A DNA stretch of 63,511 bases, counting the filler. It is 6 parts of 6 records of this genome, joined end to end, with 100 filler letters (N's around TTAATTAATTAA, not from the genome) between each part and the next. Parts side by side here need not be neighbours in the genome. Positions count along the whole stretch, not along the records: positions 1 to 18,039 come from SRR20825019_2037; 5 more parts are not named here. One strand, 5' to 3'. Each line of letters begins with the position of its first letter. Position 1 is the first letter of the stretch. The translations under genes and the position numbers were made by a program. This document shows positions 1 to 18,139 of this stretch, in pieces. The notes beneath the pieces were generated by a model. The model was not told where the DNA came from, made no database searches, and was given only the letters and a program-made list of their open reading frames with translations.

Positions 1-729
1 CCATCCGTTGGCTTGGGATGGGGAAAATGCAATCCGAAAAATCCGAAAAACCGTCGTCTGAGAAGTTCAATCCTGATCGAGCAGGCAGGTAAAAAAATCC
101 TTGTCGATGTGACACCGGATTTTCGTGAACAGGCATTGCGCCATGACATCAATCATGTTGATGCGGTGCTGTTCACACATGCACATGCTGATCATGTCCA
201 TGGCATAGATGAGCTTCGCTGGATCAATGTCGCGATGCATCGACCGATCAATATTTACGCGTCTGCCGAAACCATCTCCGACATTGATCATCGTTTTGCC
301 TATGTGTTTGAACCATTGGCCAACGGCACAGACTTTTATTACAAACCTGTGCTGATCCCGCATGTAATATCCGGGCCGTTTGAAGCGGCAGGGGTTCCGA
401 TAACCGTTTTCCTTCAGGATCACGGTTACGGTGAAACACTTGGCTTCAAAGTTGGGAAATTTGCCTATTCAACGGACGTGGTCAATTTCCCGGAAGAATC
501 TCGAGAACATCTTTACGGGCTGGATGTCTGGGTTGTTGATTGCCTTCGTCATAAACCGCATGCGACGCACGCACATCTTGAAAAAGCGTTGCAGTGGGTT
601 GAGGAATTCAAACCCAAACAAACTTACTTCACGCACATGAGCATTCTTTTTGATTACGATGAAGCAATGGCAGATACGCCGGATCATGTCGCGCCAGCGT
701 ATGATGGGCTGGTTATTGATCTGGATTGA
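1..729 (+). CDS. MBL-fold metallo-hydrolase (PhnP/YycJ-like), 5'-truncated by window edge
   Basis: THAHADHVHG metallo-beta-lactamase motif, AYSTD, HATHAHL, THMS, AYDG; frame is open from base 1. Confidence 0.9.
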   Translation, partial: PSVGLGWGKCNPKNPKNRRLRSSILIEQAGKKILVDVTPDFREQALRHDINHVDAVLFTHAHADHVHGIDELRWINVAMHRPINIYASAETISDIDHRFAYVFEPLANGTDFYYKPVLIPHVISGPFEAAGVPITVFLQDHGYGETLGFKVGKFAYSTDVVNFPEESREHLYGLDVWVVDCLRHKPHATHAHLEKALQWVEEFKPKQTYFTHMSILFDYDEAMADTPDHVAPAYDGLVIDLD

Positions 730-763
730 AGGTCGGAAAGGTTGTTCGTTCTCCTATATCACA

Positions 764-791
764 AAGTTCTATAATATATATTAGCCGCAAA
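764..791 (-). other. dif-like XerC/XerD recombination site; probable left attachment site of the prophage
   Basis: Minus strand reads TTTGCGGCTAA-TATATA-TTATAGAACTT: 11-6-11 architecture with TAA/TTA inner triplets. One arm resembles alphaproteobacterial XerD arms (TTATGGAAC-type); the other is degenerate. It lies between a host gene and the phage repressor. Confidence 0.65.
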
Positions 792-877
792 TCATGTGTT
801 AATCCGTTGCTATCCTGTTCGCTACTCTAGGGTAGGGCGCAAAATCACGTAGGATATACACAAAGGTAGGATTGCGA

Positions 878-1171
878 TCAGGCCGCAATCCCGTCCATTG
901 CTTTGTGAATATTGTCATGCATCTTAATATAATAAGTCTCGGCGTCCGTTCCTTTGGTGCGCCAGTAATTGAGGTCTAGTAAAGCCTCAAATGGATCATT
1001 GCCGCCAAGCAAGGCTAACTTGATCATTATTTCATCACCGGGCAGGCCATGCCCGCGATGATAACGCGTCATGTTGATGCTATTGATGCCAAGTTCGCGG
1101 GCGACCGCATTGTTCGAATGCAGGTTTGAATGCCGTCTGGCGTCGTCAATGTAACCGCTGATTGATTTCAT
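878..1171 (-). CDS. Phage HTH repressor (DUF3693-like, Xre fold)
   Basis: SNNAVARELGINSINMTRYHRG helix-turn-helix; GGAG RBS upstream; divergent from the phage operon and pointing toward the dif-like site. Confidence 0.7.
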   Translation of the reverse strand: MKSISGYIDDARRHSNLHSNNAVARELGINSINMTRYHRGHGLPGDEIMIKLALLGGNDPFEALLDLNYWRTKGTDAETYYIKMHDNIHKAMDGIAA

Positions 1172-1220
1172 CGCTCATATCTCCGTTTCCCGCAAAGATT
1201 GTATCTCCAAAAAAACCCAT

Positions 1221-1620: not shown

Positions 1621-1628
1621 CAGTTTCG

Positions 1629-1729: not shown

Positions 1730-1795
1730 TTCTAAACCTCAAGAAAACCCTCTGCGCGAAGCGCCAATTTCCACATTCCACGAGGATGACGAACG

Positions 1796-2176
1796 ATGAA
1801 CCAGCTTAAATTTTCCGATGATCGCAAGCATGCATCCGGGCAGTTCTCGACGCTGCATTTCGGCCTTGATATTGAAATTCATGCCATTGATGGCAATTGG
1901 GATAAAGGCAAGCCGCCAGTCGGCACCGGCAAAGAGCCGGGGCGTCCGGCCTATGATGTGTTCGGCGCTGGCCGGGGTGGCGCGGTCAAGCTGGGCGCGG
2001 CATGGCTCAAAACCATTCAGAACGGCCCGAACACAGGGAAGCAGTTCCTTACCATGTCACTTGATGATCCCAGCTTCCCATCAGCGTTGAACCTGTCGGC
2101 GTTCGAAGGTGACGCGCCGGGTATCTATAATCTGAAATGGGAGCGCCCGCGTCAGGCGACCCAAGATGCCGCATAA
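1796..2176 (+). CDS. DUF736-family protein (putative ssDNA-binding)
   Basis: PAYDVF...KLGAAW...FLTMSLDDPSFPSALN...LKWERP matches the DUF736 pattern; GAGG RBS. Confidence 0.75.
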   Translation: MNQLKFSDDRKHASGQFSTLHFGLDIEIHAIDGNWDKGKPPVGTGKEPGRPAYDVFGAGRGGAVKLGAAWLKTIQNGPNTGKQFLTMSLDDPSFPSALNLSAFEGDAPGIYNLKWERPRQATQDAA

Positions 2177-2555
2177 GGGCAACGAGCAAGCCGGGGTTAA
2201 CGCCCCGGCCTTTCGTATTCCAGACGGTTTTTCGCATGAGACAATGCCGATTTTTGGCGGTGCGTTCTCTCATGCGAAACACTGTTTCGTGGAATGGTCA
2301 GAAGATGGCGAGGAATACGCGGCTTTTCTGCCGACTGATCGCGCTTTCGACTGTCTGGCGGCATGTGAAGCCATGATGAAGGCTAAGAACCCGCCGATAG
2401 AGAGCGCGGAAATCTGGCCTATGTGCCGGTCTGTCACCAAAGGAAACCTTGACCGCCTTTGGAAGCAGGTGCGGCGGCTGCGTGAGCCGGGAAATCAGAA
2501 AACATGGTCAATCGAGTTTGCCCGGTTCGGGTATGGCGGAGGGTTTGAACGATAA
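2166..2555 (+). CDS. Hypothetical phage protein
   Basis: Overlaps the DUF736 stop; TAATG-coupled to the next ORF. Confidence 0.5.
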   Translation: MPHKGNEQAGVNAPAFRIPDGFSHETMPIFGGAFSHAKHCFVEWSEDGEEYAAFLPTDRAFDCLAACEAMMKAKNPPIESAEIWPMCRSVTKGNLDRLWKQVRRLREPGNQKTWSIEFARFGYGGGFER

Positions 2556-2815
2556 TGGGTGGTTGTCTTTTTACAGGTCCGGCAGGAAGTCAAAACAGCG
2601 CGAAAATTGTTTACCCGTCCGCGTGGGTGCTTGTTGATATTGACTTGAAAACTGGCGATGTCGCCGGGGTTGTGGGGCCGTTTTTCTCTGAATTTGAGGC
2701 GGATAATTTTGACCGGCAACGTGCTCAGGTGCGGTCCTTCCGTCGGACGCATAAGACGCGGATTTTTTCCGTGACATCACCATACGACGAAATGCGGAAA
2801 GGATGCGAACGATGA
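2555..2815 (+). CDS. Hypothetical phage protein
   Basis: Translational coupling on both sides (TAATG, ATGA); GGAGG RBS. Confidence 0.55.
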   Translation: MGGCLFTGPAGSQNSAKIVYPSAWVLVDIDLKTGDVAGVVGPFFSEFEADNFDRQRAQVRSFRRTHKTRIFSVTSPYDEMRKGCER

Positions 2816-2916
2816 GCGGCGTAACGATAATTGCCTTTTTCGTTGGTGTTGTGATCGGTGCGGCGGTTGTTGCTGCCGTGTTCGCGGGCATCATTGATGG
2901 CTGGTTTAACAACTGA
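2812..2916 (+). CDS. 34-aa single-pass membrane peptide (not in ORF track)
   Basis: MSGVTIIAFFVGVVIGAAVVAAVFAGIIDGWFNN; ATGA overlap with the upstream ORF; AAAGGA RBS. Confidence 0.6.
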   Translation: MSGVTIIAFFVGVVIGAAVVAAVFAGIIDGWFNN

Positions 2917-2924
2917 GGTGAAAC

Positions 2925-3185
2925 ATGGGTAACGGAATGGATGCACTGAGCCGGGAAGAACGCGAAGAAATGCGCGGTAATCGCTTTCCTGAATGTTGGT
3001 GCGTAATGGTTTCTCGGTCCAAAACCAGTTGGGGCTGGGGTGTTGTCGTTGTTTACGGGCCGGTTGCGCGGCAAGGCGCAGAGGCGCTTGAAAAGGTTTT
3101 GACTGGCGCGGGATTTTTGGCAGAAGCGGTCAAGATGTCAGGGCACACCGTTGATATTGCCGATTTGAGGAAACTGGTTGATTGA
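2925..3185 (+). CDS. Hypothetical phage protein
   Basis: GAGGTG RBS 4 nt before the ATG; fits the operon. Confidence 0.55.
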   Translation: MGNGMDALSREEREEMRGNRFPECWCVMVSRSKTSWGWGVVVVYGPVARQGAEALEKVLTGAGFLAEAVKMSGHTVDIADLRKLVD

Positions 3186-3190
3186 CGGGC

Positions 3191-3237
3191 GAAGGGGGCA
3201 TTTTTGTATCACGCCCCCTTCTGATTACAGGGTAGGG
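3191..3237 (+). other. Candidate rolling-circle double-strand origin
   Basis: Perfect 9-bp IR GAAGGGGGC-N13-GCCCCCTTC followed by TGATTACAGGG, immediately 5' of rep, where Rep_trans origins are typically found. Confidence 0.45.
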
Positions 3238-3240
3238 AAA

Positions 3241-4449
3241 ATGGATTTAATCTACGCAGGGTTTGACGGTCTTGATGTGACGTTTCAGGGAGTCATCCCG
3301 CTTCGGGCGGTTGATGCTTTCGAAGCGGCCAAGGTGGCAGCACAGGAAACCAAACAGGAAACCTTTGCACAGGTCGGCAAATTCAAGGGTCATGTTGCCG
3401 AAACCGGGGCGCGTGGCGGCTATACGTATCGGGTTGATACCGGCAATCTTGGCTTTACGTGGTTCTTTTCCAAATCCCAGAAGCGCGAAGGCTGGAATAT
3501 CCGGGTTTCCTGCAAGTCGGCAACCCTTGCGACATACGGCTTTGAGGGGGCCATAGGGCTTATGTATGCCGATCTTGAGGCCGTGGGGGCGACGGTCCTG
3601 CAAGAGGCCATTGCAAGGGTCGATTTCGCGATGGATTGGCGCATGCCCGGTGATTTCCGGCTTGATCCGCACCGCTTCGCGCTCCATGGGACAACCAAGG
3701 CCGACATGCACGGCGAGGAAATCGGGCAGCACTGGCAGAAACGTCAATGCACCGGCTTGACAATCGGTAAAATGCCGGGGCGGCAAATCTGCATCTATGA
3801 CAAGCGCCGCGATATCGTCGCCAAACGCAAAGACGAATGGTGGAAAATCTGGGGGATTGACCGGGACGAATTTGAGAGGTCCGGGGATCAGATGTGGCGC
3901 ATCGAATTGCGGGCCGGAAAGAAGCATTTAAAGGAACAATGGGGCGTTACGTCATGGGCCGATCTTCGCGCCAAATTGGGCGATATCTATGCGCATGCGC
4001 TCCTACGTATACGTTACAAGGCCCGGACATGGGATGAAGACGAAAATATCACCCGCATTGAGGACGATCATATGTGGGAACGCTGCCGGGCTGTAACGGG
4101 TGGAAGCCTGTTTGAGTACACGAGCAATTGCGGGCCGGGTGTCGTCAAACAGGTCATGCAGGAACAACAGCGCCAGACCATCGCCGCGATGATGATCGGC
4201 TTGTCAGCAAACCTTGCAGTTCTGTCCGGGGTGGACAAAGACCAGCTATGGGAATTGCCGCCCCTGATTTCAAAAATGATTGCCAGCAACATCCACGGGG
4301 AGGAAAGCGGAAAAGAGTTCAAATCGAAAATGAAGAAGGTCTATCGCCGATATGAAATCTATGACGAAGATGGAGTGATCCTAGATGAAAGAACGATTGG
4401 ACAAATTGGTGGCGGCACAGGAAGCTGCACAGAAAGCGCCTTTGTTTAA
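3241..4449 (+). CDS. Rolling-circle replication initiator (Rep_trans / RstA-like family)
   Basis: GFDGLDV, IARVDFAMD, ICIYDK (catalytic Tyr) and WRIELR motifs; ATG 3241 has an AGGG RBS (track start is TTG 3178). Confidence 0.8.
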   Translation: MDLIYAGFDGLDVTFQGVIPLRAVDAFEAAKVAAQETKQETFAQVGKFKGHVAETGARGGYTYRVDTGNLGFTWFFSKSQKREGWNIRVSCKSATLATYGFEGAIGLMYADLEAVGATVLQEAIARVDFAMDWRMPGDFRLDPHRFALHGTTKADMHGEEIGQHWQKRQCTGLTIGKMPGRQICIYDKRRDIVAKRKDEWWKIWGIDRDEFERSGDQMWRIELRAGKKHLKEQWGVTSWADLRAKLGDIYAHALLRIRYKARTWDEDENITRIEDDHMWERCRAVTGGSLFEYTSNCGPGVVKQVMQEQQRQTIAAMMIGLSANLAVLSGVDKDQLWELPPLISKMIASNIHGEESGKEFKSKMKKVYRRYEIYDEDGVILDERTIGQIGGGTGSCTESAFV

Positions 4450-4546
4450 CAAGGCCCATCTGATCGACAAAGCATTAGTCGAATTGGGCGGGCTGTTGAA
4501 CGAAATGGTCGAGCGGATCGAGCGGCTGGAAAATGGCAACCGTTGA
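4385..4546 (+). CDS. 53-aa coiled-coil protein; positional analogue of PM2 P13 (not in ORF track)
   Basis: MKERLDKLVAAQEAAQKAPLFNKAHLIDKALVELGGLLNEMVERIERLENGNR; GGAG RBS; overlaps the rep stop and the Zn-ribbon gene start. Confidence 0.6.
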   Translation: MKERLDKLVAAQEAAQKAPLFNKAHLIDKALVELGGLLNEMVERIERLENGNR

Positions 4547-4904
4547 TCCGGGCACTGTGATTGAAGTTCGCGCTTGTTCAGGGTGTGGGAACCCGGTCTA
4601 CGTCAAGGCGAACAAAAATCAGATTGCATATTACTTTTGCACACCTAACGACGACAACAACGGTCAAGGGTGTTCGCATCATGAAAAATGGGGACGGGTC
4701 GCATCAAACCAGAAATTGAGGGCGTATTGGGAAGCCAGACGCGCCCACGAGCGTAAGGGGGTTGATGATGACCGAAAAGACCGATTGGCTACCGGGAGCC
4801 AGCCAGACGAAGCCGAAAGCCGGGCCGACGAAAGCCAGCCTGAACCAGTCCACGAGCCTCAACGGGCCATCCTCGCCGGATTTGCCGAATACATCCGATC
4901 ATGA
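4533..4904 (+). CDS. Zn-ribbon protein; PM2 P14-like transcription activator
   Basis: CSGCG...YYFC...GC pattern with an acidic tail, located between rep and the ATPase. Confidence 0.6.
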   Translation: MATVDPGTVIEVRACSGCGNPVYVKANKNQIAYYFCTPNDDNNGQGCSHHEKWGRVASNQKLRAYWEARRAHERKGVDDDRKDRLATGSQPDEAESRADESQPEPVHEPQRAILAGFAEYIRS

Positions 4905-5409
4905 CGATATTGATGCGGGTGCTGAACATCTGGCGTCGTTCACGGTTGATCCGCTAGAAGGCGAGGCCGACGAATTTGGCGGGCTGGATGGCCTGTCAAA
5001 TCTGGCCGATGACAGCGGCGAATTTATCAGTTCGGACGTGTTCTTTTCGTCCTTCTGTACCGCCTTCCAGATCGGCGCATGTGTGCCGCCATATCTGACC
5101 AGCCTCAAGATTGATGACAGCGAAATGGATCAGGCGCGCGCCGCGTCCGATGCGCTGTATGATATCTGTCTTGATACACCTTCCATGCATTTCCTTGTTA
5201 AGCCCGGTGGTGTGTGGTTTCAGCGCGTTGCCGCGATTTCGGCCTTTGCCTTGCCTAAGGCAATGGGGGTTGTTTCGGAAATCAAGGCGAAGAAGGCAAG
5301 GCCGGTCAATCAATCCCCTGGACAAGATAAAAAAGCCGAAAGGGCCAAGCCGGAACCAGCCAAAGAACCGCCTGCAAATGGTGGTCAATATGACTGGGCT
5401 CCGACGTAA
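4765..5409 (+). CDS. Acidic protein with hydrophobic helices, coupled to the packaging ATPase
   Basis: AAGGGGG RBS before ATG 4765/4768; hydrophobic stretches VFFSSFCTAFQIGACV and VAAISAFALPKAMGVV; TAATG coupling to the ATPase. Confidence 0.6.
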   Translation: MMTEKTDWLPGASQTKPKAGPTKASLNQSTSLNGPSSPDLPNTSDHDDIDAGAEHLASFTVDPLEGEADEFGGLDGLSNLADDSGEFISSDVFFSSFCTAFQIGACVPPYLTSLKIDDSEMDQARAASDALYDICLDTPSMHFLVKPGGVWFQRVAAISAFALPKAMGVVSEIKAKKARPVNQSPGQDKKAERAKPEPAKEPPANGGQYDWAPT

Positions 5410-6050
5410 TGGCGGCGTTTTCAGAAGCGGGCCGGATTGGCATCTGGGGTCGATCCGGGTCCGGCAAATCGACGCGGGCAAAGCGTTTGATTGCGAAACG
5501 AAAGCGGGCCGTTGTCTTTGATCCTCAGGACGAATACCAGCACGAGCGCGGCTTTTTCCGGGTAACAACGATTGATCAGGTCCGGGCCTATATGGCGCGA
5601 AACTGGCGGCGCAATTTCCGGGTGGCTTATGTGCCGCCAGCCGGGCAGGAAATGGCCGCGCTTGATCGGCTATCAAAGTTGTTGAAAGTCGCCCAACGGC
5701 CATTTTTCGACGGGCACGACGAACGGCAAATCTGTTTGCTGGTCGAGGAAATGAACGAATGTTTCCCCGTGACAGGGATACCACGCGCATTCGGTGGGTT
5801 TGGTGATCTCTGTTCGCGGGGGCGGCATTCGGGGATTGAATTGATCGGCGTTTCACAGCGAATTGCAGAAGTCAATACCCGGTTTCGAGGTAATTGCACC
5901 GAAACTTATGTTTTCCGGCAAAAAGGGCCGCGTGATCTTAAGGCGGCAAGTGACGAGTTGGGCGGCGTGTCAACCGCAGAAATCCAAGCGTTACAGCCGC
6001 ACCATTACATTCACGAGAAAAACGGGACCATTACCAAAGGGAAAAACTGA
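5409..6050 (+). CDS. Genome-packaging ATPase, FtsK/HerA superfamily (PM2 P9/A32-like)
   Basis: Walker A GRSGSGKS, VVFDPQDEY, Walker B LLVEE, arginine finger RGRH, sensor GVSQR; only 213 aa, no TM segment. Confidence 0.82.
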   Translation: MAAFSEAGRIGIWGRSGSGKSTRAKRLIAKRKRAVVFDPQDEYQHERGFFRVTTIDQVRAYMARNWRRNFRVAYVPPAGQEMAALDRLSKLLKVAQRPFFDGHDERQICLLVEEMNECFPVTGIPRAFGGFGDLCSRGRHSGIELIGVSQRIAEVNTRFRGNCTETYVFRQKGPRDLKAASDELGGVSTAEIQALQPHHYIHEKNGTITKGKN

Positions 6051-6120
6051 AAAATCGTGAATTTTCCTACGTAAGGTAATGTAACGTTACCTAGATTTGC
6101 CGCCCCCGAAATTGCGGCGT

Positions 6121-6153
6121 AACCCGGTTGTCAGACAGGCGACCGGGTTTTTT
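6121..6153 (+). terminator. Intrinsic terminator after the ATPase gene
   Basis: AACCCGGTTGTC-AGACA-GGCGACCGGGTT hairpin followed by a T-run. Confidence 0.6.
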
Positions 6154-6180
6154 GTTTCCCCGGCTGTCACACAGGAAAAA

Positions 6181-6226
6181 GAGGGTCGGCAACGATTCTG
6201 ACGCAATCCTCCAAAATTTGCCTTAA
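6181..6226 (+). repeat. Terminal inverted repeat of a Tn3-family transposon (GAGGGTCGGC type, TnXax1-like)
   Basis: GAGGGTCGGCAACGATTC... begins 56 bp from the tnpA stop; preceded by AAAAA (candidate 5-bp target); inner boundary approximate. Confidence 0.65.
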
Positions 6227-6236
6227 CCTATTGTAT

Positions 6237-9209
6237 TTAAATTATTTTGGCGTTGTAGCTCATGGGTGAAACCTGCCGATCAAAATCAAGCGTATAATCG
6301 CCAAATCGGTTGATATGGTCCGTGCGGTATGGGGCCAGCCCTTTGAGAATATCGTGATCAATATGATGACCGCGCTCTTTGAGATCTTTAAGGGTTAACG
6401 TCATCGACTCCACATTGTGAAGAATGACCAGGTTGGCCACCAAGTGGTTATATTTGATCACCTTCCGTTGCTCGTGACGGATATTCTCGGCGATCACCCC
6501 CTCGCCGCCGAAGAACAGCCATTTCACGAACTGGTTGAACTCTTCCGTTTTGTTCGTCTCCGCATGAATGGTTCGCCGCAACTCCACGCTGCCAATGTAG
6601 TCCAGAAGAAAGGTTGTCCGAACGACCCTCCCCAGTTCCCGGAAAGCAAAGTAGAGTTTGTTCTTGAGGCTTGCGGTACCTAAACGTCGCAGTACCGTAG
6701 ACGGTGCGATTTTTCCAGCCTTAATCGATAGCGCCACCCGGAGCATGTCCGGCACATGGGTTTCAATCAGTTTCCAGTTGATAGTCTCGCTGAACAAAGC
6801 ATTGATGTGCTCATACCGTTGGCGTTTGTCAGACTTGTAGAACACCAGCTGCTTCAGATTCCGGATGCGGGGCATCAGGTTGATACCCAGCAGGTAAGCC
6901 AACCCGAAGACGGGCGCACTTTGCGCCTGAGTATCGCCATGCAAGGTGTCAGGCTGGATATCGGAGTCGTTTTTGATCAGTCCATCAAGGATGTAAATGG
7001 CCTCATAAACGCCGCAAGGAATGAAGTGGCTGAACAGCGCGATGTATTTGTCCGAGACGTGGTAGTAGCCCACCCCGCCATAGCCACCGTACCGTATGTG
7101 GTATTCCGATAGCAGATTCTGTTCGTACAGGTTCCATTTTGTGCCATCGGCGGCGGCCCGCTGGCCAGTTCCCCAGTGTCGCGGCAGCCGGTAGCGGTTG
7201 TAGGCATTGATAACCTGTACAATCGCCTGCTCCAGGCGCTCTTCGGTGACGTGCCGCAGGTTGAGCCAGGACACCTGCCGGCGATTAAGCGTCGTGATGG
7301 ATCGCGCGGTCTGAGTTGGCCCGAGATTGCAGCCATAGCAAAATAAGGTCGAAACAAAGCGGGTACGGGGGTCGTCCAGCTTGCCCTCAAATCCGGAAAG
7401 TGGCCCAAAGCGTTTGTGGAGGCCCAGCCATTTTTCGGCTTCCACCAGGATGTCGAGAATGTTCTTTTCGGGCATATTTTGGGATAACTGCTTATCAATC
7501 TCAGCTAACCCATCCGGAGGCGCTCTACGGCGGTGCTTCCGGATCACCAGATCTTCACCATGGAAGACGGCGTATTCATTCTCCGGGAAGCCACGGTCAA
7601 TGCGGTCGGCCGTTTCGCTCAACCGGGAGTGGGCTTGTACCACAAAAGCGGCTGGGTCGGATTCGATATCAATCATCGCACTGTAGTCCGCTATCTGGGC
7701 ATCATAGACACTCCAATCCACCAGCTGATCGCGGTAGTCACTGTACTGGTCGCTATTCGCGACCGCGAGATCGCCGGAAATCAGTTCACGCTTCACCTGT
7801 GTCAGTACGCCCAGCTCGAAATACTTCCGGTAGACCATCCCGGGGGGCAGCTGGCTTGGCCCGGTCCCCAATACCAAACGGCGCCAACGCTCCGGTAGCC
7901 AGGACACGTCGACGGGTTGACTACTGAGGACAAGGCATTCCTTACGGCTGTGCCGGTGCTTTTTCAGAGTCGCAATCGCCTCAATCAAAGATTGATCGTG
8001 GCTGGTTGCCGCCAGATCCAGTAGTTCAAGGCAATTGAATAACAGGGGGCGTAACGGGCGGTAGGGTTGCAGCATGAACGGGATGAAGTTATTGCCAGCA
8101 TAGGCCATGTGTTCCTCACACTCTGCCAGTAATTCATCAGGATCGCTCTGGATGGCAGCCGCCACTCGGGCACCTCGCTCGGAGTCCGTTGGCGCTTCCT
8201 GGACGGCGGTCAGTACGTCACGCAGTTGAGCCACCAGCCTGTCCATGCGTTTCATGTGATCCAGGTGATACTGGTTCAGGTTGGCTTCTGCCTTGGTTTT
8301 GATGTTGCGCATCTTGCGAACAAAGATGTCGACCGCATCGTCCATCGCGCGACGCAATTGGGCATGGACCAGCAGAACCATCAAAGCGTAGCGTTTGGTG
8401 CTTTGCATGGCCTTGATGTTGGCCGCGCCCAGCGCTCGTGCTTCCAGTATGAAGTGGTGATATTTGGCGGCGGGAATGTGATCAACAGCGGGCAATTGTT
8501 GACACCAACCCTGAAGCCATTCCAGGTGCTGAAGATACTTCTTCACTTCCGTATTGGTCGGCTTTTTGGGTTCCTGTTTCAACTTATGCCAACTGGTATG
8601 AGGGGAATCATCCGGCACTTGCAGCAACTGGTCAAATTCGTTTTTTTGATGCGCTGTCAAACCCACATTGAGCGTCCGAAAGTAACCGGTATTGACCGTG
8701 CTGCGAGCCTGACGCGCGGTCCGTTGCAACGTTGAAAAACCCGGTAACTCAAAACGCTGGCGCACCAGCTCTTCAATCACCACATTGATGATGTCCGCCA
8801 GGTCCTGCTTGGTGGTGGCCGCTTCACGCGCTAGTTCCCGTACAATTGCCTTGCCTTCAACGGTGAACGCCTTGATGCCCACCTGTTGACGAACCGTCTC
8901 CAGCATCCGCTGACGGGCGCCGCCATTGCGGTCGTAGACCCTGAGCTGGCTCAATGCGAGATGTGAAAGGTCGTCGCACGCCAGAATGTGCGTTGTAATG
9001 GATTGGGGAACGGCTTTGAGATGGACAAAGTAGCCCAGACGCTGCACTGTTTTCAGGAGAATGAGTAGGGCGCCACGAGCAGCCGGAGTTCGACCGTGCT
9101 TTCGGGCAAAGGATCGTTCCTGGGTAGAGGGTGTATAAATTTCTGCCAGTTCTTGATCCGAGACCACCGCCTTCAATCGCGGATAGGCGGTTTCATGGAG
9201 GCTACTCAT
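6237..9209 (-). CDS. tnpA: Tn3-family transposase, apparently intact
   Basis: 990 aa; HETAYPRL N-terminus; DDE-region motifs AADGT, YHIRYGGYGG, HGDTQ, TNKTEE, HINRFGDY. Confidence 0.95.
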   Translation of the reverse strand: MSSLHETAYPRLKAVVSDQELAEIYTPSTQERSFARKHGRTPAARGALLILLKTVQRLGYFVHLKAVPQSITTHILACDDLSHLALSQLRVYDRNGGARQRMLETVRQQVGIKAFTVEGKAIVRELAREAATTKQDLADIINVVIEELVRQRFELPGFSTLQRTARQARSTVNTGYFRTLNVGLTAHQKNEFDQLLQVPDDSPHTSWHKLKQEPKKPTNTEVKKYLQHLEWLQGWCQQLPAVDHIPAAKYHHFILEARALGAANIKAMQSTKRYALMVLLVHAQLRRAMDDAVDIFVRKMRNIKTKAEANLNQYHLDHMKRMDRLVAQLRDVLTAVQEAPTDSERGARVAAAIQSDPDELLAECEEHMAYAGNNFIPFMLQPYRPLRPLLFNCLELLDLAATSHDQSLIEAIATLKKHRHSRKECLVLSSQPVDVSWLPERWRRLVLGTGPSQLPPGMVYRKYFELGVLTQVKRELISGDLAVANSDQYSDYRDQLVDWSVYDAQIADYSAMIDIESDPAAFVVQAHSRLSETADRIDRGFPENEYAVFHGEDLVIRKHRRRAPPDGLAEIDKQLSQNMPEKNILDILVEAEKWLGLHKRFGPLSGFEGKLDDPRTRFVSTLFCYGCNLGPTQTARSITTLNRRQVSWLNLRHVTEERLEQAIVQVINAYNRYRLPRHWGTGQRAAADGTKWNLYEQNLLSEYHIRYGGYGGVGYYHVSDKYIALFSHFIPCGVYEAIYILDGLIKNDSDIQPDTLHGDTQAQSAPVFGLAYLLGINLMPRIRNLKQLVFYKSDKRQRYEHINALFSETINWKLIETHVPDMLRVALSIKAGKIAPSTVLRRLGTASLKNKLYFAFRELGRVVRTTFLLDYIGSVELRRTIHAETNKTEEFNQFVKWLFFGGEGVIAENIRHEQRKVIKYNHLVANLVILHNVESMTLTLKDLKERGHHIDHDILKGLAPYRTDHINRFGDYTLDFDRQVSPMSYNAKII

Positions 9210-9441
9210 ACGCAGTTCTTCGCTATGGGGTTCCAGTGAAAGGCATTAGCCCACAGTACTTTCGCTCTTGAGGGGGGCATTGCTTATAGTAGGCAGCAAT
9301 TCGTCAAGACCAAAGGAACCGCCCGTTATTTTGTGAACGCCACGCTCGCTTTACGTTACGGGATTATTCGGTCATCGATCGCCGGTTCCCCGATTTATTG
9401 AATCGTTACACCACACCGCAGACTGATTCGAGCTATGGCCA

Positions 9442-9728
9442 TTGAGCATCTTTCCCCCCCCACTGATCATTCACACCTACCAACGCCTTTCTAGTGCCCA
9501 GCTAATCGCTCTGGCAGGGACCGGGCTAACGACGGTGGCGCTGGCGCCGCTGGCCCATGACTGACGGGCGGCAGTGCGGGCCAGGTGCTCGGCATTGCGC
9601 TGGCCCTGAAGATGATTGCCTACGCCCTAATAGCACCTCTGTTTGGGGCTGTTGCCCAAAAACTTCCCCGCCGTACTCTGCTGGTCACACTGGACATTCT
9701 GAGGGCCTGCGGGGTTGCCCTTTGTCAC
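9442..9728 (+). pseudogene. NreB-like MFS transporter, 5' fragment, frameshifted
   Basis: TYQRLSSAQLIALAGTGLTTVALAPLAHD*, then in another frame GGSAGQVLGIALALKMIAYALIAPLFGAVAQKLPRRTLLVTLDILRA; matches the N-terminus of NreB-type nickel MFS exporters. Confidence 0.65.
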
Positions 9729-10189
9729 TGAGGTTTGGCAGGGGGCCCACTCTGGCTAGGGTAGGTACAAAATTTTCGCCCAACCCCTTCATGTAATGAC
9801 GCAATTAAGGGGCACGAGATATTGCCCTCTTGGGCGCAGCACCGATCAACCATGGCGCTCAGTAAAACCTCAATTTGCTGTAGCTTTTCGATCTTCCCAC
9901 GTACGTCGTGCAACTTGCGCTCCGCGAGAGTGCTGGCTTCCTGGCAGTGGGTGCCGTCTTCGAGTCGGAGCAGGTCGCTGACCTCATCGAGACTGAAGCC
10001 TAACTGCTGCGATGTTTTCACAAAGCTCAACCTGCCGATATCGCTGGGACCGTAGCGTCGAATACCCCCGAGAGGACGCTGGGGCTCAGGTATTAACCCA
10101 CGTCGCTGGTAGTAGCGGATGGTCTCAACTGAGACGTTCGCCGCCTTAGCCAGCCCCCCGATGGTCAATGAGTTCATTTCATCCGGCAT
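9725..10189 (-). CDS. merR: Hg(II)-responsive regulator MerR
   Basis: [28 protein letters not shown]; Hg-ligand cysteines in GTHC, RCC and SCPLI; divergent mer operator. Confidence 0.9.
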
Positions 10190-10194
10190 TTGCC

Positions 10195-10225
10195 TTGACT
10201 CCGTAGTTGACTACGGCCTCAAGCT
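10195..10225 (+). promoter_or_regulatory. mer operator/promoter
   Basis: -35 TTGACT; dyad CCGTAG-TTGA-CTACGG inside a 19-bp spacer; -10 position reads CAAGCT (degenerate). Confidence 0.85.
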
Positions 10226-10262
10226 TAACCTATCGAACAAGGCCGTAGAAGGTGTAATTGCA

Positions 10263-10408
10263 ATATCAGAGTTGAATTCCGAGTCACAATCCGGTCGCGA
10301 GTCGTTAATCGCAGGCGGGGTTGCAGCCTGCTCGCGTCGGCCTGCTGTCTGGGCACCTTGGCCCTGATCGCCCTGGGGGGTTCCGGTGCCTGGATCGGCA
10401 ACCTGGCG
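10263..10408 (+). pseudogene. merT: merT 5' remnant
   Basis: SGRESLIAGGVAA / frameshift / LASACCLGTLALIALGGSGAWIGNL; no ATG (ATA follows the RBS); truncated by ISL3 sequence. Confidence 0.8.
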
Positions 10409-11089
10409 AAGTCTGCGAGGTACCGCAAGTGCGCACCGCTTCGAGACACCCCGCTACCTAGGTATCGACGAGCTGTACCTGAACCGCCGCTACCTCTGCA
10501 TCCTGACCAACCTGGAGGAGCGTACCTTGTTAGACCTGCTGCCCGGTCGTCAGCAGGAGGCAGTGACGAAGCGGCTCATGAGCATGACCGAGCGCGACAA
10601 GATCGAGATCGTCAGCATGGACATGTGGAAGCCATATCGCCGTGCCGTCCAGGCGGCGCTGCCACAGGCCCGCATCGTGGTCGATAAGTTCCATGTTGTG
10701 CGTATGGCCAACGAAGCCCTGGAGAAGGTCCGCAAGGGGCTCAGGAAGGAGCTGAAGGCCAACCAACGCCGAACCCTCAAGGGTGACCGGAAGACCTTGC
10801 TGAAGCGGGCTCACGACGTCTCCGACCGCGAACGTCTCATCATGGAAACCTGAATGGGGGCCTTCCCCCAGCTCCTGGCAGCCTACGAGCACAAGGAGCG
10901 GTTCTACCACATCTGGGACTGTGCCAGCCGGCGAGATGCTGAGCAGGCGCTGGCTGCCTGGATTGACGACATCCCAGTCACCAATGCCTTCACGGAGTCG
11001 ATCAACCGGCTGGCCAAGGACAAGAACCGCGATGGCCGGGGCTACTCATTCGAGGTGATGCGGGCCCGGATGCTCTACACCACCAAGCA
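10409..11089 (+). pseudogene. ISL3-family transposase fragment (ISPpu12-like)
   Basis: LGIDELYL, SMDMW, VVDKFHVV and TNAFTESIN motifs; in-frame TGA at 10851; apparent internal deletion; cut by the Tn3 IR at 11090. Confidence 0.85.
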
Positions 11090-11127
11090 GGGGTCAGTTC
11101 ACGAAACGGAAAAAATTGTACGCTAAG
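11090..11127 (+). repeat. 38-bp Tn21/Tn501-type terminal inverted repeat
   Basis: GGGGTCAGTTCACGAAACGGAAAAAATTGTACGCTAAG: exactly 38 bp, GGGG start and CGCTAAG end. Confidence 0.9.
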
Positions 11128-11371
11128 CCTTTGGCATCAATGATATCGACACCATTTTTTCCACAATTCATAAAGTTGCGCAGTAATTAGTCGACGACTG
11201 GCCCTTGCTAAATAATTTTCATTTCAGCATGAGTTGTGCTTTAAAAATTCAATTCTGCAACTACACTCATTGGGCGAACAGAGCGAGAAATCCGCCGTTA
11301 ATTCCAATAGCGGGTACGCGAATGAATATCAGGGTAATCCCCCCATTTTTAGCGGGGTTCAAAAGTAGACC

Positions 11372-12199
11372 TTAGGCCATCATGGCCAACTTCTGTTGAG
11401 GGGTAATCCCTCCGAGTCCCATATTGGGTCGTTCGTGATTGTAGTGCCAGAGCCAGCGAGTGGCATAGTCCTGGACTTCTTCAGTGCTGTCGAACAAATA
11501 CTGCGCCAGCCAATCGTAACGGACTGTTCGGTTGTAGCGTTCAATATAGGCATTCTGCTGCGGTTTGCCCGGCTGGATAAACGCCAGCTTGATGTCTTGT
11601 TTGTCGGCCCAGGCTGACAGCTTGCCGCTGATGTACTCAGGACCGTTGTCACAGCGAATAGAGCGCGGTTTCCCACGCCACTCAATGATCTGCTCCAGTG
11701 ATCGGATAACCCGCTCTGCCGGAAGCGAGAAGTCCACTTCGATGCCAAGGCCTTCCCGGTTAAAGTCATCAATCACATTCAGCAGTCGGTAACTGCGACC
11801 GTCGTTAAGCTGGTCGTGCATGAAGTCCATCGACCAACTGTCATTGATGATTTCCGGCACGGCCAAGGGTTCAGGCTTTTCACGAACCAGGCGCTTTTTA
11901 GGTTTGATTCGCAGATTCAGTTCCAGCTCCCGATAAATCCGGTAAACCCGTTTGTGATTCCAGGCAAAGCCTTTCACATTGCGCAAATGCAGGAAACACA
12001 GACCAAAGCCCCAGTTCCGCTGGTTATGGGTCAGTCGGATCAGCCAGTCCGCGATTTCGGCATTCTCGCTGCTGAGCTTTGCCCGGTAGCGATAGCAGGT
12101 CTCGCTGATGCTGAACATCCAGCAAGCCAGGCGAATACTGACGTGCTTCTCATTGACGGCTTTCTGCGCCATCTCACGGCGACGAGACGGCTTTACCAC
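11372..12199 (-). CDS. IS3 transposase OrfB (DDE integrase core)
   Basis: WSMDF, DNGPEY and [14 protein letters not shown] motifs. Confidence 0.92.
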
Positions 12200-12459
12200 T
12201 TTTTTTCGATAGCTTCCTTGAGGATGTCAGCCTTCAATCGTTCCTCGGCATACATCTTCTTGAGCCGGCGGTTTTCATCCTCCAGCTCTTTCAAGCGAGC
12301 CATCATGGACGCGTCCATGCCACCGAACTTGGCCCGCCATTTATAAAAACTGGCGTTGCTCATGCCGTGCTCTCGGCACAGCTCCGGGACCGGCACGCCG
12401 TTCTCGGCTTGCTTGAGGATCGACAGGATCTGGCTGTCGGAAAAACGTGACTTCTTCAT
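12193..12459 (-). CDS. IS3 transposase OrfA
   Basis: [21 protein letters not shown]...[15 protein letters not shown]; ends at the AAAAAAAG -1 frameshift motif. Confidence 0.9.
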
Positions 12460-12532
12460 GCAGAATCTCCCTGCGTCTAGCTTACGGAAAATTCTACTTT
12501 TGATCACCGCTGTTTTTCGGGGGGATTACCGC

Positions 12533-12697
12533 CCGTTATCGCCAGTTCTGGCAAACCTGTTTCTGCATTATGCATTGGATCGTTGGCTGACCGTTCGTCA
12601 TCCGGATATCCCATTCTGCCGATATGCAGATGACGGAATACTGCGTTGTCGAAGTGAGCGTGAGGCTCAGTATCTGCATTCCCAGCTAGATATGCGT
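12533..12697 (+). pseudogene. Group II intron reverse transcriptase fragment
   Basis: LSPVLANLFLHYALDRW...FCRYADDG (RT domains 4-5; YADD at 12623-12634); cut on the left by the IS3. Confidence 0.82.
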
Positions 12698-12713
12698 GAG
12701 GTGGACCCAATAG

Positions 12714-13574
12714 CTATTCACAGAGATGCCCAACAAACGAGTATACTGGCCTGTGTTTGTCCAGGCTGCTCGGATAAATCACCATCAGCTCCTTGCTAAG
12801 GCCAGGCTCACTCACGGGAATAGCCACCAGACTTCCATTTTGGACCTCCTCCCGTACAGAACTTTCAAGCACCAACGATGCGCCAAGTCCGACCTTAACC
12901 GCTTGCTTGACGGCTTCGGTGCTACCCAGCTGCATAGATACCGTCGGAAATGGCCCATGCTCACCGAAGTAGGTCGCCAAAAGCCGGCCAGTGCCGGTGC
13001 CGGGTTCGCCGCCGATCAGAGCCATGTTAGACAGCGTATCGCGGTCGATATCGGTTCGACGGGCTAACGGGTGACCAGGCGGAACGATTAGAACAACGGG
13101 CTCGTTACGCCACGCCTGAGCATGGAATCCGGGTAGATCATGCCACCACTCCATAATCGCCACGTCCAGCTCACCGTCCGATAAATGCCGTGCAATAGTC
13201 GGATTGGAATCTATTACCACATCCACCTCGGGCCCTACGCCCAGCTCCTTGTAACGACGGATGTAGGGCTGGAGCATATAAATCCCAATATTGGAGCTCG
13301 CCCCAACGCGAAGTCGAGCCTCCATAATGGAAGATCTCGCCTGCTCCTCCAGCCGGAGCAGACTTCGGGCAAAAGGCAACAAGGTTAAGGCAGCCCGGGT
13401 TGGCTCACAGCCAGAGCGCCCCCTGTGGACCAATAAAACGCCAAGTTGGTTTTCGAGTTTTTGAAGGTGCTGGGACAGTGTGGGTTGTGCGATGTCCAAC
13501 TGGCGGGCTGCGGCCTGAAACCCGTTGTGGTCCAGCACCGCCACGAAACTCTTCAGCCAGACAAGATTCAGCAT
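12714..13574 (-). CDS. ptxE: LysR-family regulator PtxE
   Basis: LysR HTH ([20 protein letters not shown]); overlaps the ptxD stop. Confidence 0.88.
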
Positions 13575-14578
13575 GGGCCGCTCTCGCGGCCACTGGGATC
13601 ATTGATCGCATCATCCGGCCGCTCACCCCGAAGCACTTGCAGAATGTTCCGAGCAGCGCGTTGCTCGATAGCCAGACGCACCTGGCTGACTGCCGATCCG
13701 ATGTGAGCAGTAAACAGCGTGTTGGGGTGGGCCCTGAGCCCCTGGGCGATCTCCCTCGGACGATCTTCTCTCGCCCAATCTTCCATCTCAAACACATCAG
13801 CGGCGTACCCCCCCAACTGACCGGATTGAAGCGCTTGCAGAACACTACCCTCATCCACCACAGATCCACGGCAGGGATTGATAAGGAATGCGCCCGGTTT
13901 CATTCCTGTTAGCGTTTCGCGATTAATGGTGTGGAGGGTTTGCTCATTGAGCGCCAGTGCCAGGATCACAATATCTGACTGGGCCAGCAGCATCTTGAGG
14001 GGAGTATGGGACAAACCCAGTGCCTGCTCATGCTGCACGGGTAAACGTTCCGGCTGGGAATAGATTAAATCCGCTCCCCATCCGTTCAGGCGCTGCGCCA
14101 CCGCTTGGCCGATGGCCCCCATACCCACAATACCAATCCGTGAGCCTTCGATCCCCTGCCCATAGAAGCGTGGTGTCCAGCCAGTAAATTCACCGGATCG
14201 AACGAAGTGGTCCGCCGCCTTGACTTGTCGGGTGAGACTGATCGTCAGCCCGACCGTTAGCTCTGCAGTAGGCACGGTTAGCAAATCCGGTACAAATGTC
14301 AGCCAAACCCCATGACGCGTGCAGGCATCCACATCAAAGTTGTCATAGCCTTTCAGGGCTGCACCAATCACCTTCAAGCGCGGACACCCCTGTAGGAACT
14401 CCACTCCAACTCGGTCTGGCATGAACGCCATCATCGCATCAGCGTCTGCAACGCGCGCAGCCACTTCCTCCTGGGGCAACGTGGCGCCGGATTGGTTGGT
14501 GACCAGCTCGCAATCTTGGGCAAGTTCATCCAGAACACTGTCATGGATCTTATGGGTTATCACAACCTTGGGTTTCAT
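13568..14578 (-). CDS. ptxD: Phosphite dehydrogenase
   Basis: 336 aa; K76, R237, E266 and H292 at canonical PtxD positions; GMGAIG Rossmann motif; DVFEMEDW. Confidence 0.96.
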
Positions 14579-14587
14579 CGACGTTCC

Positions 14588-15418
14588 TTATTTGAATTTC
14601 TTACGAAGGCGGCCACTGAGACTGTCCACGACGGTGACCATCAACAAGATGACAATGAGAATGGCGCTGACTTCCTGATACTGCATGATTCTCAGCGAGC
14701 CCATCAATTCGAAGCCAATACCACCGGCACCCACCATGCCCATTACGGTCGAGGCACGGAAATTGTATTCCCAGCGATAAATGGACACGTCCGCGAATTG
14801 AGGAAGTGCTTGTGGCAGCACGGCGTGATAGAGCACCTGCAAGCGAGTAGCGCCGGCAGCATCGGCCGCTTCCACTGGCGCCTCATCTACATGCTCAATC
14901 GCTTCGGCAAAAAACTTTCCAACCATGCCAATGGAGTGAAGACCGAGCGCCAGTACGCCAGGCAACGCCCCAAAACCAACAGCAGCCACGAAGATGATGC
15001 CCATGATCAGTTCCGGGACTGAACGCAAACCGTTTAAAAGGGTTCGAGTTACTTGGAACACCACCGGATGTGGAGAGGTGTTGCGCGCAGCCAGGAATGC
15101 CAGTGGCACAGACAAGGTTACTGCAATGGCAGTACCGGCAATGCTCATCGCAAGCGTGTCGATTAACGGCGACACCCAGCTGGCCACATTGGTGAAGTCA
15201 GGTGGAAGAGATTCGCCAATGAGTGTGCCTATGGCTGGCACGCCATTGGCAAGTGTATTGAAATTGAGCAGCCCTACGTACCAACTTGCGACAAAAATGA
15301 TGAGCAGCACTAACAGCGACTGTCCGAGTTTTTTCCGCCAGCCTTTCGCGTGCTCATCCAGCACGGAGGCCGACGGGGCCGGCGACAGAGTCGCCGGTTC
15401 CGTCGTTGTATAGTTCAT
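14588..15418 (-). CDS. ptxC: Phosphite ABC transporter permease (PhnE family)
   Basis: RSVPEL, GKFFAEAIEHVD, YRWEYNFRAS; start at MNYTT with GAGGAG RBS. Confidence 0.92.
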   Translation of the reverse strand: MNYTTTEPATLSPAPSASVLDEHAKGWRKKLGQSLLVLLIIFVASWYVGLLNFNTLANGVPAIGTLIGESLPPDFTNVASWVSPLIDTLAMSIAGTAIAVTLSVPLAFLAARNTSPHPVVFQVTRTLLNGLRSVPELIMGIIFVAAVGFGALPGVLALGLHSIGMVGKFFAEAIEHVDEAPVEAADAAGATRLQVLYHAVLPQALPQFADVSIYRWEYNFRASTVMGMVGAGGIGFELMGSLRIMQYQEVSAILIVILLMVTVVDSLSGRLRKKFK

Positions 15419-15428
15419 GGGGCACTCC

Positions 15429-17134
<1,706 letters not shown>

Positions 17135-17185
17135 AGGATCACCTTTTGCAATAAATAAGCTCGCCGTATTGCGAGTTACAATTGA

Positions 17186-17230
17186 ACGGTAAAGCTGAGA
17201 GATGACACTGTCGTGTCACTGACGTGACAG
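17186..17230 (-). promoter_or_regulatory. Pho-box promoter of ptxABCDE
   Basis: Minus strand CTGTCAC-GTCA-GTGACAC-GACA-GTGTCAT (three heptamers at 11-bp period), then exactly 10 nt to a -10-like TACCGT. Confidence 0.8.
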
Positions 17231-17330
17231 GTTGATGAAGTGCTTTTGGTTCGCAAGGATTTTCCGAAGGGCTCTGTGAAATACATGGAGCTCAGCCAAA
17301 GTGGAACGAGCCACCCAGGAGCTTAAGCAA

Positions 17331-17560
17331 CAAAAATTGCGTTCCACCGTCAGTCGGCGAATCTCACGGTACAGTTCGTCCGTGCTGAGTTCATCGAATT
17401 GCTTACCGACTATACTCTTGCCTTCGAGGAGGTCGGACGCGCTCTCCAATAGGTCGCGCTTCCAGGTGCTGACTATGGTGGGGTGGATCTGGAAACGGGC
17501 AGCAATTCAAGGTGTGGCCTTAAGGGTGGGCAAGGACAGCCTTGCACTTACTAATTCGAA
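17331..17560 (-). pseudogene. Degenerate IS3-family OrfA remnant
   Basis: IAARFQIHPTIVSTWKRDLLESASDLL...DELYREIRRLTVERNF resembles OrfA HTH plus leucine zipper; stop upstream, no orfB. Confidence 0.65.
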
Positions 17561-17567
17561 ATAAAGT

Positions 17568-17996
17568 AAGCAGGGCACTGTCACCGCATCACTGATGCTG
17601 CGCAAGCTCGGGAGCTATCCGCGTCAGAATGGCCTCGCGATCGCATTGCGCGAGCTGGGCCGCATTGAGCGAACATTATTCGCACTCGACTGGATGCAAA
17701 ACGTCGAACTGCGTCGCCGCGTGCAGGTTGGTTTGAATAAGGGCGAGGCTAAGAACGCGCTGGCTCGTGCCGTCTTCCTGAACCGGCTCGGTGAACTCCG
17801 CGATCGCAGTTACGAGAATCAACGCTACCGTGCAAGCGGACTCAATCTCGTCGTCAGCGCTATTATCCTTTGGAATACGGTTTATATGGAGCGGGCGGTT
17901 CAAGCACTGCGCGAAGACGGCCGGGATATCGACGAGACGCTTCTGCGGCATCTTTCTCCCTTGGGCTGGGAGCACATCAACCTGACCGGCGACTAT
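17568..17996 (+). pseudogene. tnpA: Tn21-subgroup Tn3 transposase, C-terminal fragment
   Basis: [24 protein letters not shown]...[13 protein letters not shown]...[14 protein letters not shown]; lacks the N-terminal portion and diverges after GDY. Confidence 0.9.
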
Positions 17997-18039
17997 AAAG
18001 GATGTCAAACAACTATCCTGCTGCGCGGGATAAGGCAAG

Positions 18040-18139
18040 NNNNNNNNNNNNNNNNNNNNNNNNNNNNNNNNNNNNNNNNNNNNTTAATTAATTAANNNNN
18101 NNNNNNNNNNNNNNNNNNNNNNNNNNNNNNNNNNNNNNN
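18040..18139. other. Artificial contig spacer
   Basis: N44-TTAATTAATTAA-N44, stops in all six frames. Confidence 0.99.

Follow-up and report, generated by a model that had tools for sequence, protein, structure and literature searches.

A ptx-bearing Tn3-family transposon inserted in a PM2-like prophage at a dif-like site of Thalassospira

Introduction

Temperate Vinavirales viruses of the Jorvik and NO16 kind have genomes of about 9–11 kb and dif-like att sites; they encode a double-jelly-roll capsid protein of the P2 type, a P9-type ATPase and a cell-wall hydrolase, and they lack an integrase. For the integrase-less Jorvik-like prophages of Alphaproteobacteria, which have dif-like att sites, integration by XerCD has been proposed (PMC10589892). 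A second described system is the Tn4651/TnXax1 type of transposon, which has a large DDE TnpA at one end, TnpS and TnpT near the other, cargo between them and inverted repeats (IRs) of about 38 bp (PMC7157771). Here we describe a locus that combines these known kinds. It lies on the first of six contigs in the 63.5 kb stretch of DNA analysed (the window) and consists of a Tn3-family cargo transposon with a ptx (phosphite) gene module, inserted in a Vinavirales prophage at a dif-like site of a Thalassospira chromosome. Nested mobile elements, prophages that carry a transposon included, are ordinary; the interest of the locus lies in the threefold recurrence of the insertion.

The window prophage resembles the NO16/Jorvik-like viruses in all the features listed above; it is only distantly related to them in sequence, and no virion of it is known. 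The transposon is compared best with one on the plasmid pSMR5 of Marinobacter salarius (NZ_CP020932.1, 110918-134063, 23.1 kb). The left arm of the latter is 98.2% identical over window 6181-11089 and has the same content (IR, tnpA, merR, merT remnant and ISL3 fragment), and the first 42 bases of its right arm are also identical. In both elements the IRs start with GAGGGTCGGC and the insertions carry 5-bp duplications. The middle of the pSMR5 element is different, with crcB, P-type ATPase, sulfite oxidase genes and merTPA in place of ptx, and it resides on a plasmid, not in a prophage. In pMAQU02 of Marinobacter nauticus VT8 and in large enterobacterial plasmids, the ptx module is found in plasmid accessory regions, whereas here it is IR-bounded chromosomal cargo. 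One side of the module is flanked by the same reverse-transcriptase fragment in those plasmids; on its other side, the Marinobacter copies share the tnpA fragment as well. We found no literature joining ptxD with Thalassospira, and among papers on ptxD, transposons and horizontal transfer none deals with this element as far as titles and the first parts of abstracts tell.

Both junctions and the uninterrupted target

The stretch 800-6400 of the window is present in 18 public runs of 8 studies, four of which (X1, X3, X4 and X15) were compared with contig 1. A protein-guided scan of metagenome contigs with the packaging ATPase as query gave two further loci, L058 (TARA) and L059 (CERC); both were thus found by the ATPase and neither via the transposon. 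L058 is 99.97% identical to window 1-6184 and reads ...CACACAGGAAAAAGGGGTTTTCCGTGAGTGCAAAGAG... across the insertion point, with one AAAAA. In the window, the left flank ends ...CACACAGGAAAAA and the transposon opens with GAGGGTCGGCAACG... at 6181. The far side is supplied by X15, the only one of the four compared runs with the arrangement of the window. One X15 contig of 2,292 bp bridges the left junction (window 5704-7995). A second one matches 6181-6216 with unlike flanks: its inner side is the sequence found inside the far IR of pSMR5, and its outer side, in window orientation, reads AAAAAGGGGTTTTCCGTGAGTGCAAAGAGT. This outer flank consists of AAAAA and then GGGGTTTTCCGTGAGTG..., and AAAAA+GGGGTTTTCCGTGAGTGCAAAGAGT (window orientation) is the same as L058 10768-10797. 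L058 therefore equals the left flank of the window plus the far flank of X15 minus one AAAAA. The window lineage is a simple insertion at 6180/6181 with a 5-bp AAAAA duplication, not a chimera.

These data bear out each part of the original prediction that could be checked. It had foretold a matching far-end IR, an AAAAA duplication and capsid genes beyond. An inverted copy of exactly 6181-6216 is present in X15, X1, X3 and X4 contigs; AAAAA stands on the far flank in X15 and once in L058; and the L058 flank opens a module with a P2_N/P2_C protein, of which the window lineage itself gives the first 30 bases only. The suggestion that the insertion parts early from capsid genes agrees with L058, where the capsid gene lies beyond the insertion point. 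A chimeric joint at 6180/6181, which it had considered, is spanned by the X15 contig with 477 and 1,815 bases on the two sides. One claim holds in part: the IR does start at 6181 behind the ATPase gene, but the RBS-like AGGA (ribosome-binding site, RBS) that precedes it is probably not the working RBS of the next gene, judging from L058, where the start GTG is preceded (six bases) by GGGG, beyond the insertion.

The insertion lies 25 bases past a terminator-like hairpin (6121-6149; 12 pairs, -25 kcal/mol, z -2.76, followed by a T run) and ahead of the first late gene. No open reading frame (ORF) of the prophage is broken by it in the window lineage. A search near the insertion point found no sigma-70-like promoter.

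Ends and extent of the transposon

The left end is set by six contexts, namely the window, the plasmids L001, L026 and L027, L058 and L059, which diverge exactly at G6181, just outside GAGGGTCGGC.... The IR 24-mer occurs once in the window and in 0 of 100 shuffles. The end at 6181 is not a chance match, because five other independent copies lose flank similarity at the same G. Contig 1 (1-18040) stops at a contig end and not at a biological boundary, and within the window a search with up to 3 mismatches gave the copy at 6181 alone, as did a repeat search of contig 1, which found no partner. In three plasmids no far IR was found within ~9 kb of tnpA; it was seen in two of them once longer stretches were taken. 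The second IR of pSMR5 is 23.1 kb distant, beside a tyrosine recombinase (329 aa) and a divergent gene (351 aa) in the right arm; the pSMR5 element has TAGAG on both sides, and a relative on a Methylophaga plasmid is flanked by TATAA, again a 5-bp duplication. The family is therefore characterised by IRs of about 38 bp, 5-bp duplications and a TnpS/TnpT-like right arm.

The complete layout is seen in a 79 kb contig of X4, which reads host flank, dif, 887 bp, far IR, 3,144 bp, window 18039>12533, window 11329>6181, 4,520 bp and window 6181>1. The 4,520 bp stretch is absent from the window, and X1 and X3 have the layout of X4. The transposon is 13,836 bp long without an IS3 element and 15,039 bp with it, as in the window lineage, and its IRs measure 36-38 bp. 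All 11,860 bases of window 6181-18040 lie inside this one transposon, in line with the at least 11.8 kb of transposon DNA that the original prediction had counted past the junction. The ptx genes, which it had taken for cargo, do travel with the element, as the whole unit recurs at other sites. The element is a Tn3-family transposon that moves as one IR-to-IR unit.

The right arm continues off the contig for ~3.2 kb; the far IR is reached after 3,222 bp in X4 and after 3,226 bp in pSMR5. By analogy with pSMR5, tnpS, tnpT and the far IR should lie in this part, and cointegrates would be resolved by TnpS and TnpT at a site between their genes. The likeness to the Tn4651/TnXax1 type consists of a large DDE TnpA and an IR of about 38 bp in the window element, and of the recombinase and divergent gene seen in its pSMR5 relative. 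The comparison is one of architecture. Most Tn3-family IRs start with GGGG; that of the window element starts with GAGGG.

The prophage and its late module

Between the att sites, the prophage without the transposon measures ~10.8 kb (5,397 + 4,521 + ~883 bp). The late module of 4.5 kb is seen in L058 beyond the insertion point. After AAAAA, L058 encodes two small membrane ORFs of 29 and 40 aa and then a 272-aa P2-type capsid protein, which scores 72 bits with P2_N and 75 bits with P2_C (Pfam cutoffs 25). In tblastn it matches annotated double-jelly-roll capsid genes of Vibrio phages at 24-28% identity. Further late ORFs and a cell-wall hydrolase gene follow.

Related prophages occur in three Thalassospira genomes, with 67-73% DNA identity over 3192-6157. 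In all three, the conserved intergenic block leads into a GGGGG ribosome site and then a small membrane ORF. Pfam was run on one of them, L003, which further on encodes a 272-aa protein that passes both P2_N and P2_C, and then a cell-wall hydrolase. The ATPase has 291 relatives in databases, mostly in marine Alphaproteobacteria, many of them on 9-10.5 kb contigs. Its similarity to the ATPase of the corticovirus-like (PM2-like) Vibrio phage NO16 is weak (tblastn E 7e-6, 32% identity), so that on both capsid and ATPase the Vibrio phages are distant from the window prophage; Jorvik itself was not among the tblastn matches. No relative of the ATPase or of the candidate replication initiator (Rep) was found among IMG/VR viral contigs. 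The Pfam scan gave no match for the candidate Rep of the window, and its L003 homologue has a sub-threshold match to Rep_trans (E 0.0054). The architecture is Jorvik-like, with an ATPase, a P2 capsid protein, a hydrolase and dif-like att sites, and with no integrase found. These gene contents point to a PM2/Jorvik-like, double-jelly-roll, membrane-containing virus of Vinavirales type.

The intergenic block between packaging and late genes is conserved in four of four aligned Thalassospira prophages. Window 6051-6120 (L003 3049-3118; also L055 and L056) is nearly invariant across four prophages that are otherwise 67-73% identical. With its palindrome GGTAAnGTAACGTTACC the block is a candidate operator or late-control site, by analogy with Jorvik, for which a regulatory repeat and a CtrA site are reported at the same position.

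Host locus and attachment site

Contig 1 is Thalassospira chromosome. The gene for the MBL-fold hydrolase at its start is found in 37 of the 37 Thalassospira genomes searched and is 98% identical in G037, the closest of them. G037 shows 98% identity over 1-783, and similarity ends at 783, inside a dif-like 28-mer. The site in G037 reads AAGTTCTATAATATATATTATGACAAAT. Written with a bar at the breakpoint (shown here as a slash), G037 is AAGTTCTATAATATATATTA/TGACAAAT; the window is identical up to the slash and continues with GCCGCAAAT. Since similarity stops inside the dif-like 28-mer, G037 represents the empty site and the window a hybrid attL. Beyond the prophage, the sequence of 763-783 recurs in contigs of X1, X3 and X4, where it is joined to the G037-type flank; the element is therefore bracketed by dif-like sites. 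Pfam detected no integrase domain in 784-6180 or in the late module. The prophage is integrated at the host dif without an integrase of its own, presumably with the use of XerC/XerD.

Related prophages (L059, L056 of G021 and the window) occur in both orientations relative to the MBL gene that adjoins dif; the dif-like site of L059 is at 10929-10956. The palindromic TATATA centre of the dif-like site may permit integration both ways. In the Thalassospira metagenome-assembled genome G002 (contig C82, 10690-17235), ~6.5 kb lie between the MBL gene and the prophage regulator region, and in G021 ~6.5 kb likewise seem to separate the MBL gene from the oppositely oriented prophage. A second dif-integrated element may stand in tandem in G002 and G021.

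Proposed history and alternatives

We propose that a Vinavirales-type virus of ~10.8 kb integrated at the chromosomal dif of Thalassospira without an integrase, presumably by host XerC/XerD. By ordinary replicative transposition, a Tn3-family transposon then entered the 30-base gap that separates the terminator-like hairpin from the first late gene, duplicating AAAAA. Its backbone is that of the 23 kb transposon of the Marinobacter plasmid, with the middle replaced by the widely travelled ptxABCD-ptxE module, and the IS3 element landed in it later (13,836 to 15,039 bp). The late genes would be cut off from upstream drive, and the host would keep a phosphite-utilisation island fixed at dif. We put the probability of this account, a dif prophage split by simple insertion of a ptx-bearing Tn3-family transposon, at about 0.9.

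The transposon brings the unit from att site to att site to ~25.8 kb, or 2.4 viral genome lengths, and sets the late genes 15 kb apart from all that lies upstream of them. In the group of this prophage, isolated phages and contigs cluster at 9-11 kb. A fixed icosahedral capsid of the PM2 type is unlikely to package 2.4 genome lengths. The virus most likely can no longer package itself and may have lost virion production; the split element may still undergo Rep-driven replication. The original prediction, which had spoken of a greatly enlarged PM2-sized genome anchored at dif, is borne out here by the growth from ~10.8 to ~25.8 kb and by the G037 empty site.

Several readings other than this one have to be weighed. 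Since the assembly mixes organisms, its contigs including some of 31% and some of 53% G+C, and since the nearest relatives of both transposon arms are on plasmids, the joint at 6180/6181 might be a chimera of a prophage contig and plasmid-borne transposon DNA. This is extremely improbable in view of the independently built X15 contig that bridges a joint without any shared repeat, the far junction with its matching duplication and native prophage continuation, and a word depth in X15 that is alike across the junction (694 vs 663-683, contig depth being a rough guide). The mosaic interior (broken mer operon, ISL3, reverse-transcriptase and second tnpA fragments), the lack of a resolvase gene adjoining tnpA and the presence of the ptx module of Thalassospira G007 in a Tn7-like element would fit an orphan IR and tnpA in a patchwork of dead mobile fragments, with ptx not part of a unit transposon. 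We give this very little credence, as the IR-to-IR unit including ptx is found at a second site of the prophage (X1, X3, X4 and L058), the left arm at a third (L059), and the duplication in the window is perfect.

An adjacent deletion, by which the transposon removed the 4.5 kb late module and left a prophage stump, has in its favour that in the sister lineage (L058, X1, X3 and X4) the same IR is separated from 6180 by late genes over 4,521 bp, and that the window contig alone cannot separate a deletion from a separate insertion. After such a deletion, however, the far IR would keep its old flank, which begins TACTT, whereas the only far-IR junction of X15 is AAAAA with the start of the first late gene; this course of events is very unlikely. 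Much the same holds for a still working virus that spreads the ptx transposon in its particles. No ORF is interrupted in the window lineage, and the same transposon sits in related prophages of two species; the prophage backbones differ, though (77-78% identity), so the transposon moved and not the virus. The unit of ~25.8 kb against the 9-11 kb norm of the group, the other two insertions, which break a late ORF and the ATPase gene, and the lack of any ATPase relative or IR copy among IMG/VR viral contigs also make a working virus hard to believe.

Some points weigh against our own account of a prophage split by simple insertion. X15 shares with the window all sampled words (100%), every variant and the IS3, and it may be the same data; its contigs exclude an assembler artefact but do not count as an independent sample. 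The late genes of the window lineage itself are seen for only 30 bases past the far IR in X15, and their integrity would follow from the sister lineage. With no sigma-70-like promoter found near the insertion, the late genes may be harmed by it to a greater or lesser extent. For the right arm of the window lineage, the predicted content is based on 42 + 66 matching bases and on agreement in length; in pSMR5 the NCBIfam match of the recombinase is weak (E 7e-7), with nothing specific for its partner gene. Rare transposon-free or excised forms are not visible in contigs.

Recurrence and target preference

In L058, X1, X3 and X4 the same transposon lies 4,521 bp further along the same prophage, in the same orientation, inside a small late ORF with the flank TACTT. 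Between this sister lineage and the window there are 1-2 base differences in 6.2 kb of prophage sequence and 3 in the transposon, besides the IS3. Deletion cannot interconvert the two arrangements, because the far junction in X15 is a fresh insertion. A third case is L059, from another Thalassospira species (MBL gene 75% identical), in which a related prophage has its ATPase gene interrupted at codon 30 by the same left arm (100% over 4,852 bp). That prophage has 77% protein and 78% DNA identity to the one in the window and stands beside a dif-like site. The tnpA gene was found in none of 37 Thalassospira species genomes and none of 401 sampled genomes of the order, among those searched. As a side observation, L061 (contig C134 of Thalassospira G023, 6706-7202) carries the last 504 bp of a right arm of pSMR5 type, IR included, which are 97% identical, and represents another member or remnant of the pSMR5-type transposon group in the genus.

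There are thus three separate insertions in prophages of ~10.8 kb within genomes of ~4.7 Mb, and these hold the only tnpA copies found in Thalassospira. If insertion were random, the joint chance of the second and third events would be ~5e-6 by our own arithmetic. The recurrence suggests a target bias for dif prophages. A tentative idea, to which we give about one chance in three, is that small rolling-circle prophages resident at dif serve this Tn3-family transposon as favoured landing pads. A plasmid-like replicative form might attract an episome-favouring transposon, with XerCD then anchoring the loaded genome at dif. Another possible cause is a transposase that targets the replication terminus, by analogy with Tn917. 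For Tn917, a Tn3-family member, insertions are reported to accumulate around the terminus, the region that contains dif (PMC12053914, citing Garsin et al. 2004); this bias was shown in Firmicutes for a member distant from the window transposon. Survival of harmless insertions only would be a third possible cause. If the landing-pad idea is true, a plasmid-borne nutrient module becomes chromosomally fixed by killing a virus.

Phosphite use is an advantage in phosphate-poor sea water. The locus gives one concrete route by which a marine alphaproteobacterium gains, as a stable trait of its chromosome, a ptx module that is otherwise seen on plasmids. As an example of a cargo transposon that hits a non-tailed prophage integrated at dif, the locus is fully resolved, with the uninterrupted target, both junctions and two further independent insertions. 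A real target preference would link the target choice of the Tn3 family, Xer/dif-integrating elements and the decay of these under-studied but abundant prophages.

Features of contig 1 and the ptx cargo

The features of contig 1 are collected in Table 1.

Table 1. Positions of the host, prophage and transposon features on contig 1, with the basis for each.
Feature	Position	Strand	Basis
Host MBL-fold hydrolase gene	1..729	+	PF12706 E 1.6e-35; 5' end cut by contig end
attL, hybrid dif-like site: host XerC-type arm and TATATA centre, then phage-type arm (TTAGCCGCAAAT)	763..790	+	
HTH regulator, repressor-like	878..1171	-	phrog_638 transcriptional regulator, E 2.4e-10
DUF736 protein, early region	1796..2176	+	PF05284 E 8.6e-12
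Candidate replication initiator, 423 aa	3178..4449	+	position and conservation in related prophages; putative function
Zn-ribbon protein	4533..4904	+	PF13408, weak, E 3.8e-4, below cutoff
Packaging ATPase, P9-like, FtsK/HerA type, 213 aa, P-loop, Walker A GRSGSGKS	5409..6050	+	phrog_2666 E 6.6e-24; DUF87/HerA E 9e-6
Intergenic region between packaging and late genes	6051..6180	+	conserved block with palindrome, then terminator-like hairpin and T run
AAAAA, left copy of 5-bp target-site duplication	6176..6180	.	single AAAAA in L058; AAAAA also past far IR in X15
Terminal IR, tnpA-proximal end	6181..6216	+	boundary from six contexts
tnpA, Tn3-family DDE transposase, 990 aa	6237..9209	-	PF01526 E 1.4e-145 and DUF4158; NF033527 709.5 bits (cutoff 500)
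merR (9725-10189, -), mer operator region, frameshifted truncated merT remnant	9725..10410	.	TIGR02051 158 bits (cutoff 151); merT read from sequence
ISL3-family transposase gene fragments	10386..11126	+	PF01610 on two broken ORFs; pSMR5 similarity stops at 11089
IS3-family insertion sequence (orfA 12193-12507, orfB 11372-12199)	11330..12532	-	NF033516 210 bits
Reverse-transcriptase gene fragment, ptx module edge	12533..12713	+	RVT_1 weak, E 2.4e-5; RT domain annotated in plasmids with the same module
ptxE, LysR-type regulator	12714..13574	-	PF03466, PF00126; module 99.9% identical in Marinobacter and enterobacterial plasmids
ptxD, predicted NAD-dependent phosphite dehydrogenase	13568..14578	-	sequence only
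ptxC (14588-15418 or 15481), ptxB (15429-16292), ptxA (16289-17134), ABC importer for phosphite/phosphonate	14588..17134	-	TIGR01097 303, TIGR01098 276, TIGR02315 316 bits
3' fragment of second, different Tn3-family tnpA, ptx module edge	17595..17997	+	PF01526 positions 256-389, E 3.3e-55; Marinobacter similarity ends 17997
Right-arm start	17998..18040	+	42/42 bases identical to pSMR5 L029 6039-6080

The tnpA gene has 98.2% DNA identity to that of pSMR5. The IS3 is skipped in contigs of X1, X3 and X4 (joint 11329>12533), and copies 100% identical to it are present in two other Thalassospira species (G036 and G038); it is therefore an insertion sequence resident in the genus, which got into the transposon once the latter had arrived. 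Window 12531-17997 is 99.8-99.9% identical to Marinobacter plasmids, and the match to enterobacterial plasmids extends as far as 17307.

The ptx genes are arranged in the order A-B-C-D-E on the minus strand, and the scores with TIGR01097, TIGR01098 and TIGR02315 are all above their cutoffs. Residues 1-327 of PtxD match solved phosphite/phosphonate dehydrogenases with E 1.2e-138, and the next class, glyoxylate reductase, with 2.8e-63; no PtxD-specific NCBIfam model matched. The module would be expressed in the host and act as a phosphite-use island.

The ptx module rides at least three kinds of vehicle. In another Thalassospira species (L060, G007:C1:4058000-4077900) it occupies 11713-16598 with 99.8% identity over 4,886 bp. 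Its neighbours there are TnsA-, TnsB- and TnsC/TniB-like genes that belong to a Tn7-like element, and transposase genes of IS630 and IS5 type lie on either side.

Sequence set and neighbouring contigs

The six contigs of the window are joined by N linkers carrying TTAATTAATTAA at 18084, 36156, 43826, 52192 and 57683. The G+C content falls from 54% to 31% at 18040 and rises again at 43880. In X1, bins 12643-17458 showed no cover, from which we draw nothing. The window is a mixed-organism assembly, in which the contigs at 18141-43782 have ~31% G+C. The nearest genome by words common with the window, G001 (30%), shares none with contig 1 and therefore matches the other contigs. A single open frame spans 2,754 codons of the contig that starts at 43883; the contig after it has one of 1,465 codons on the minus strand.

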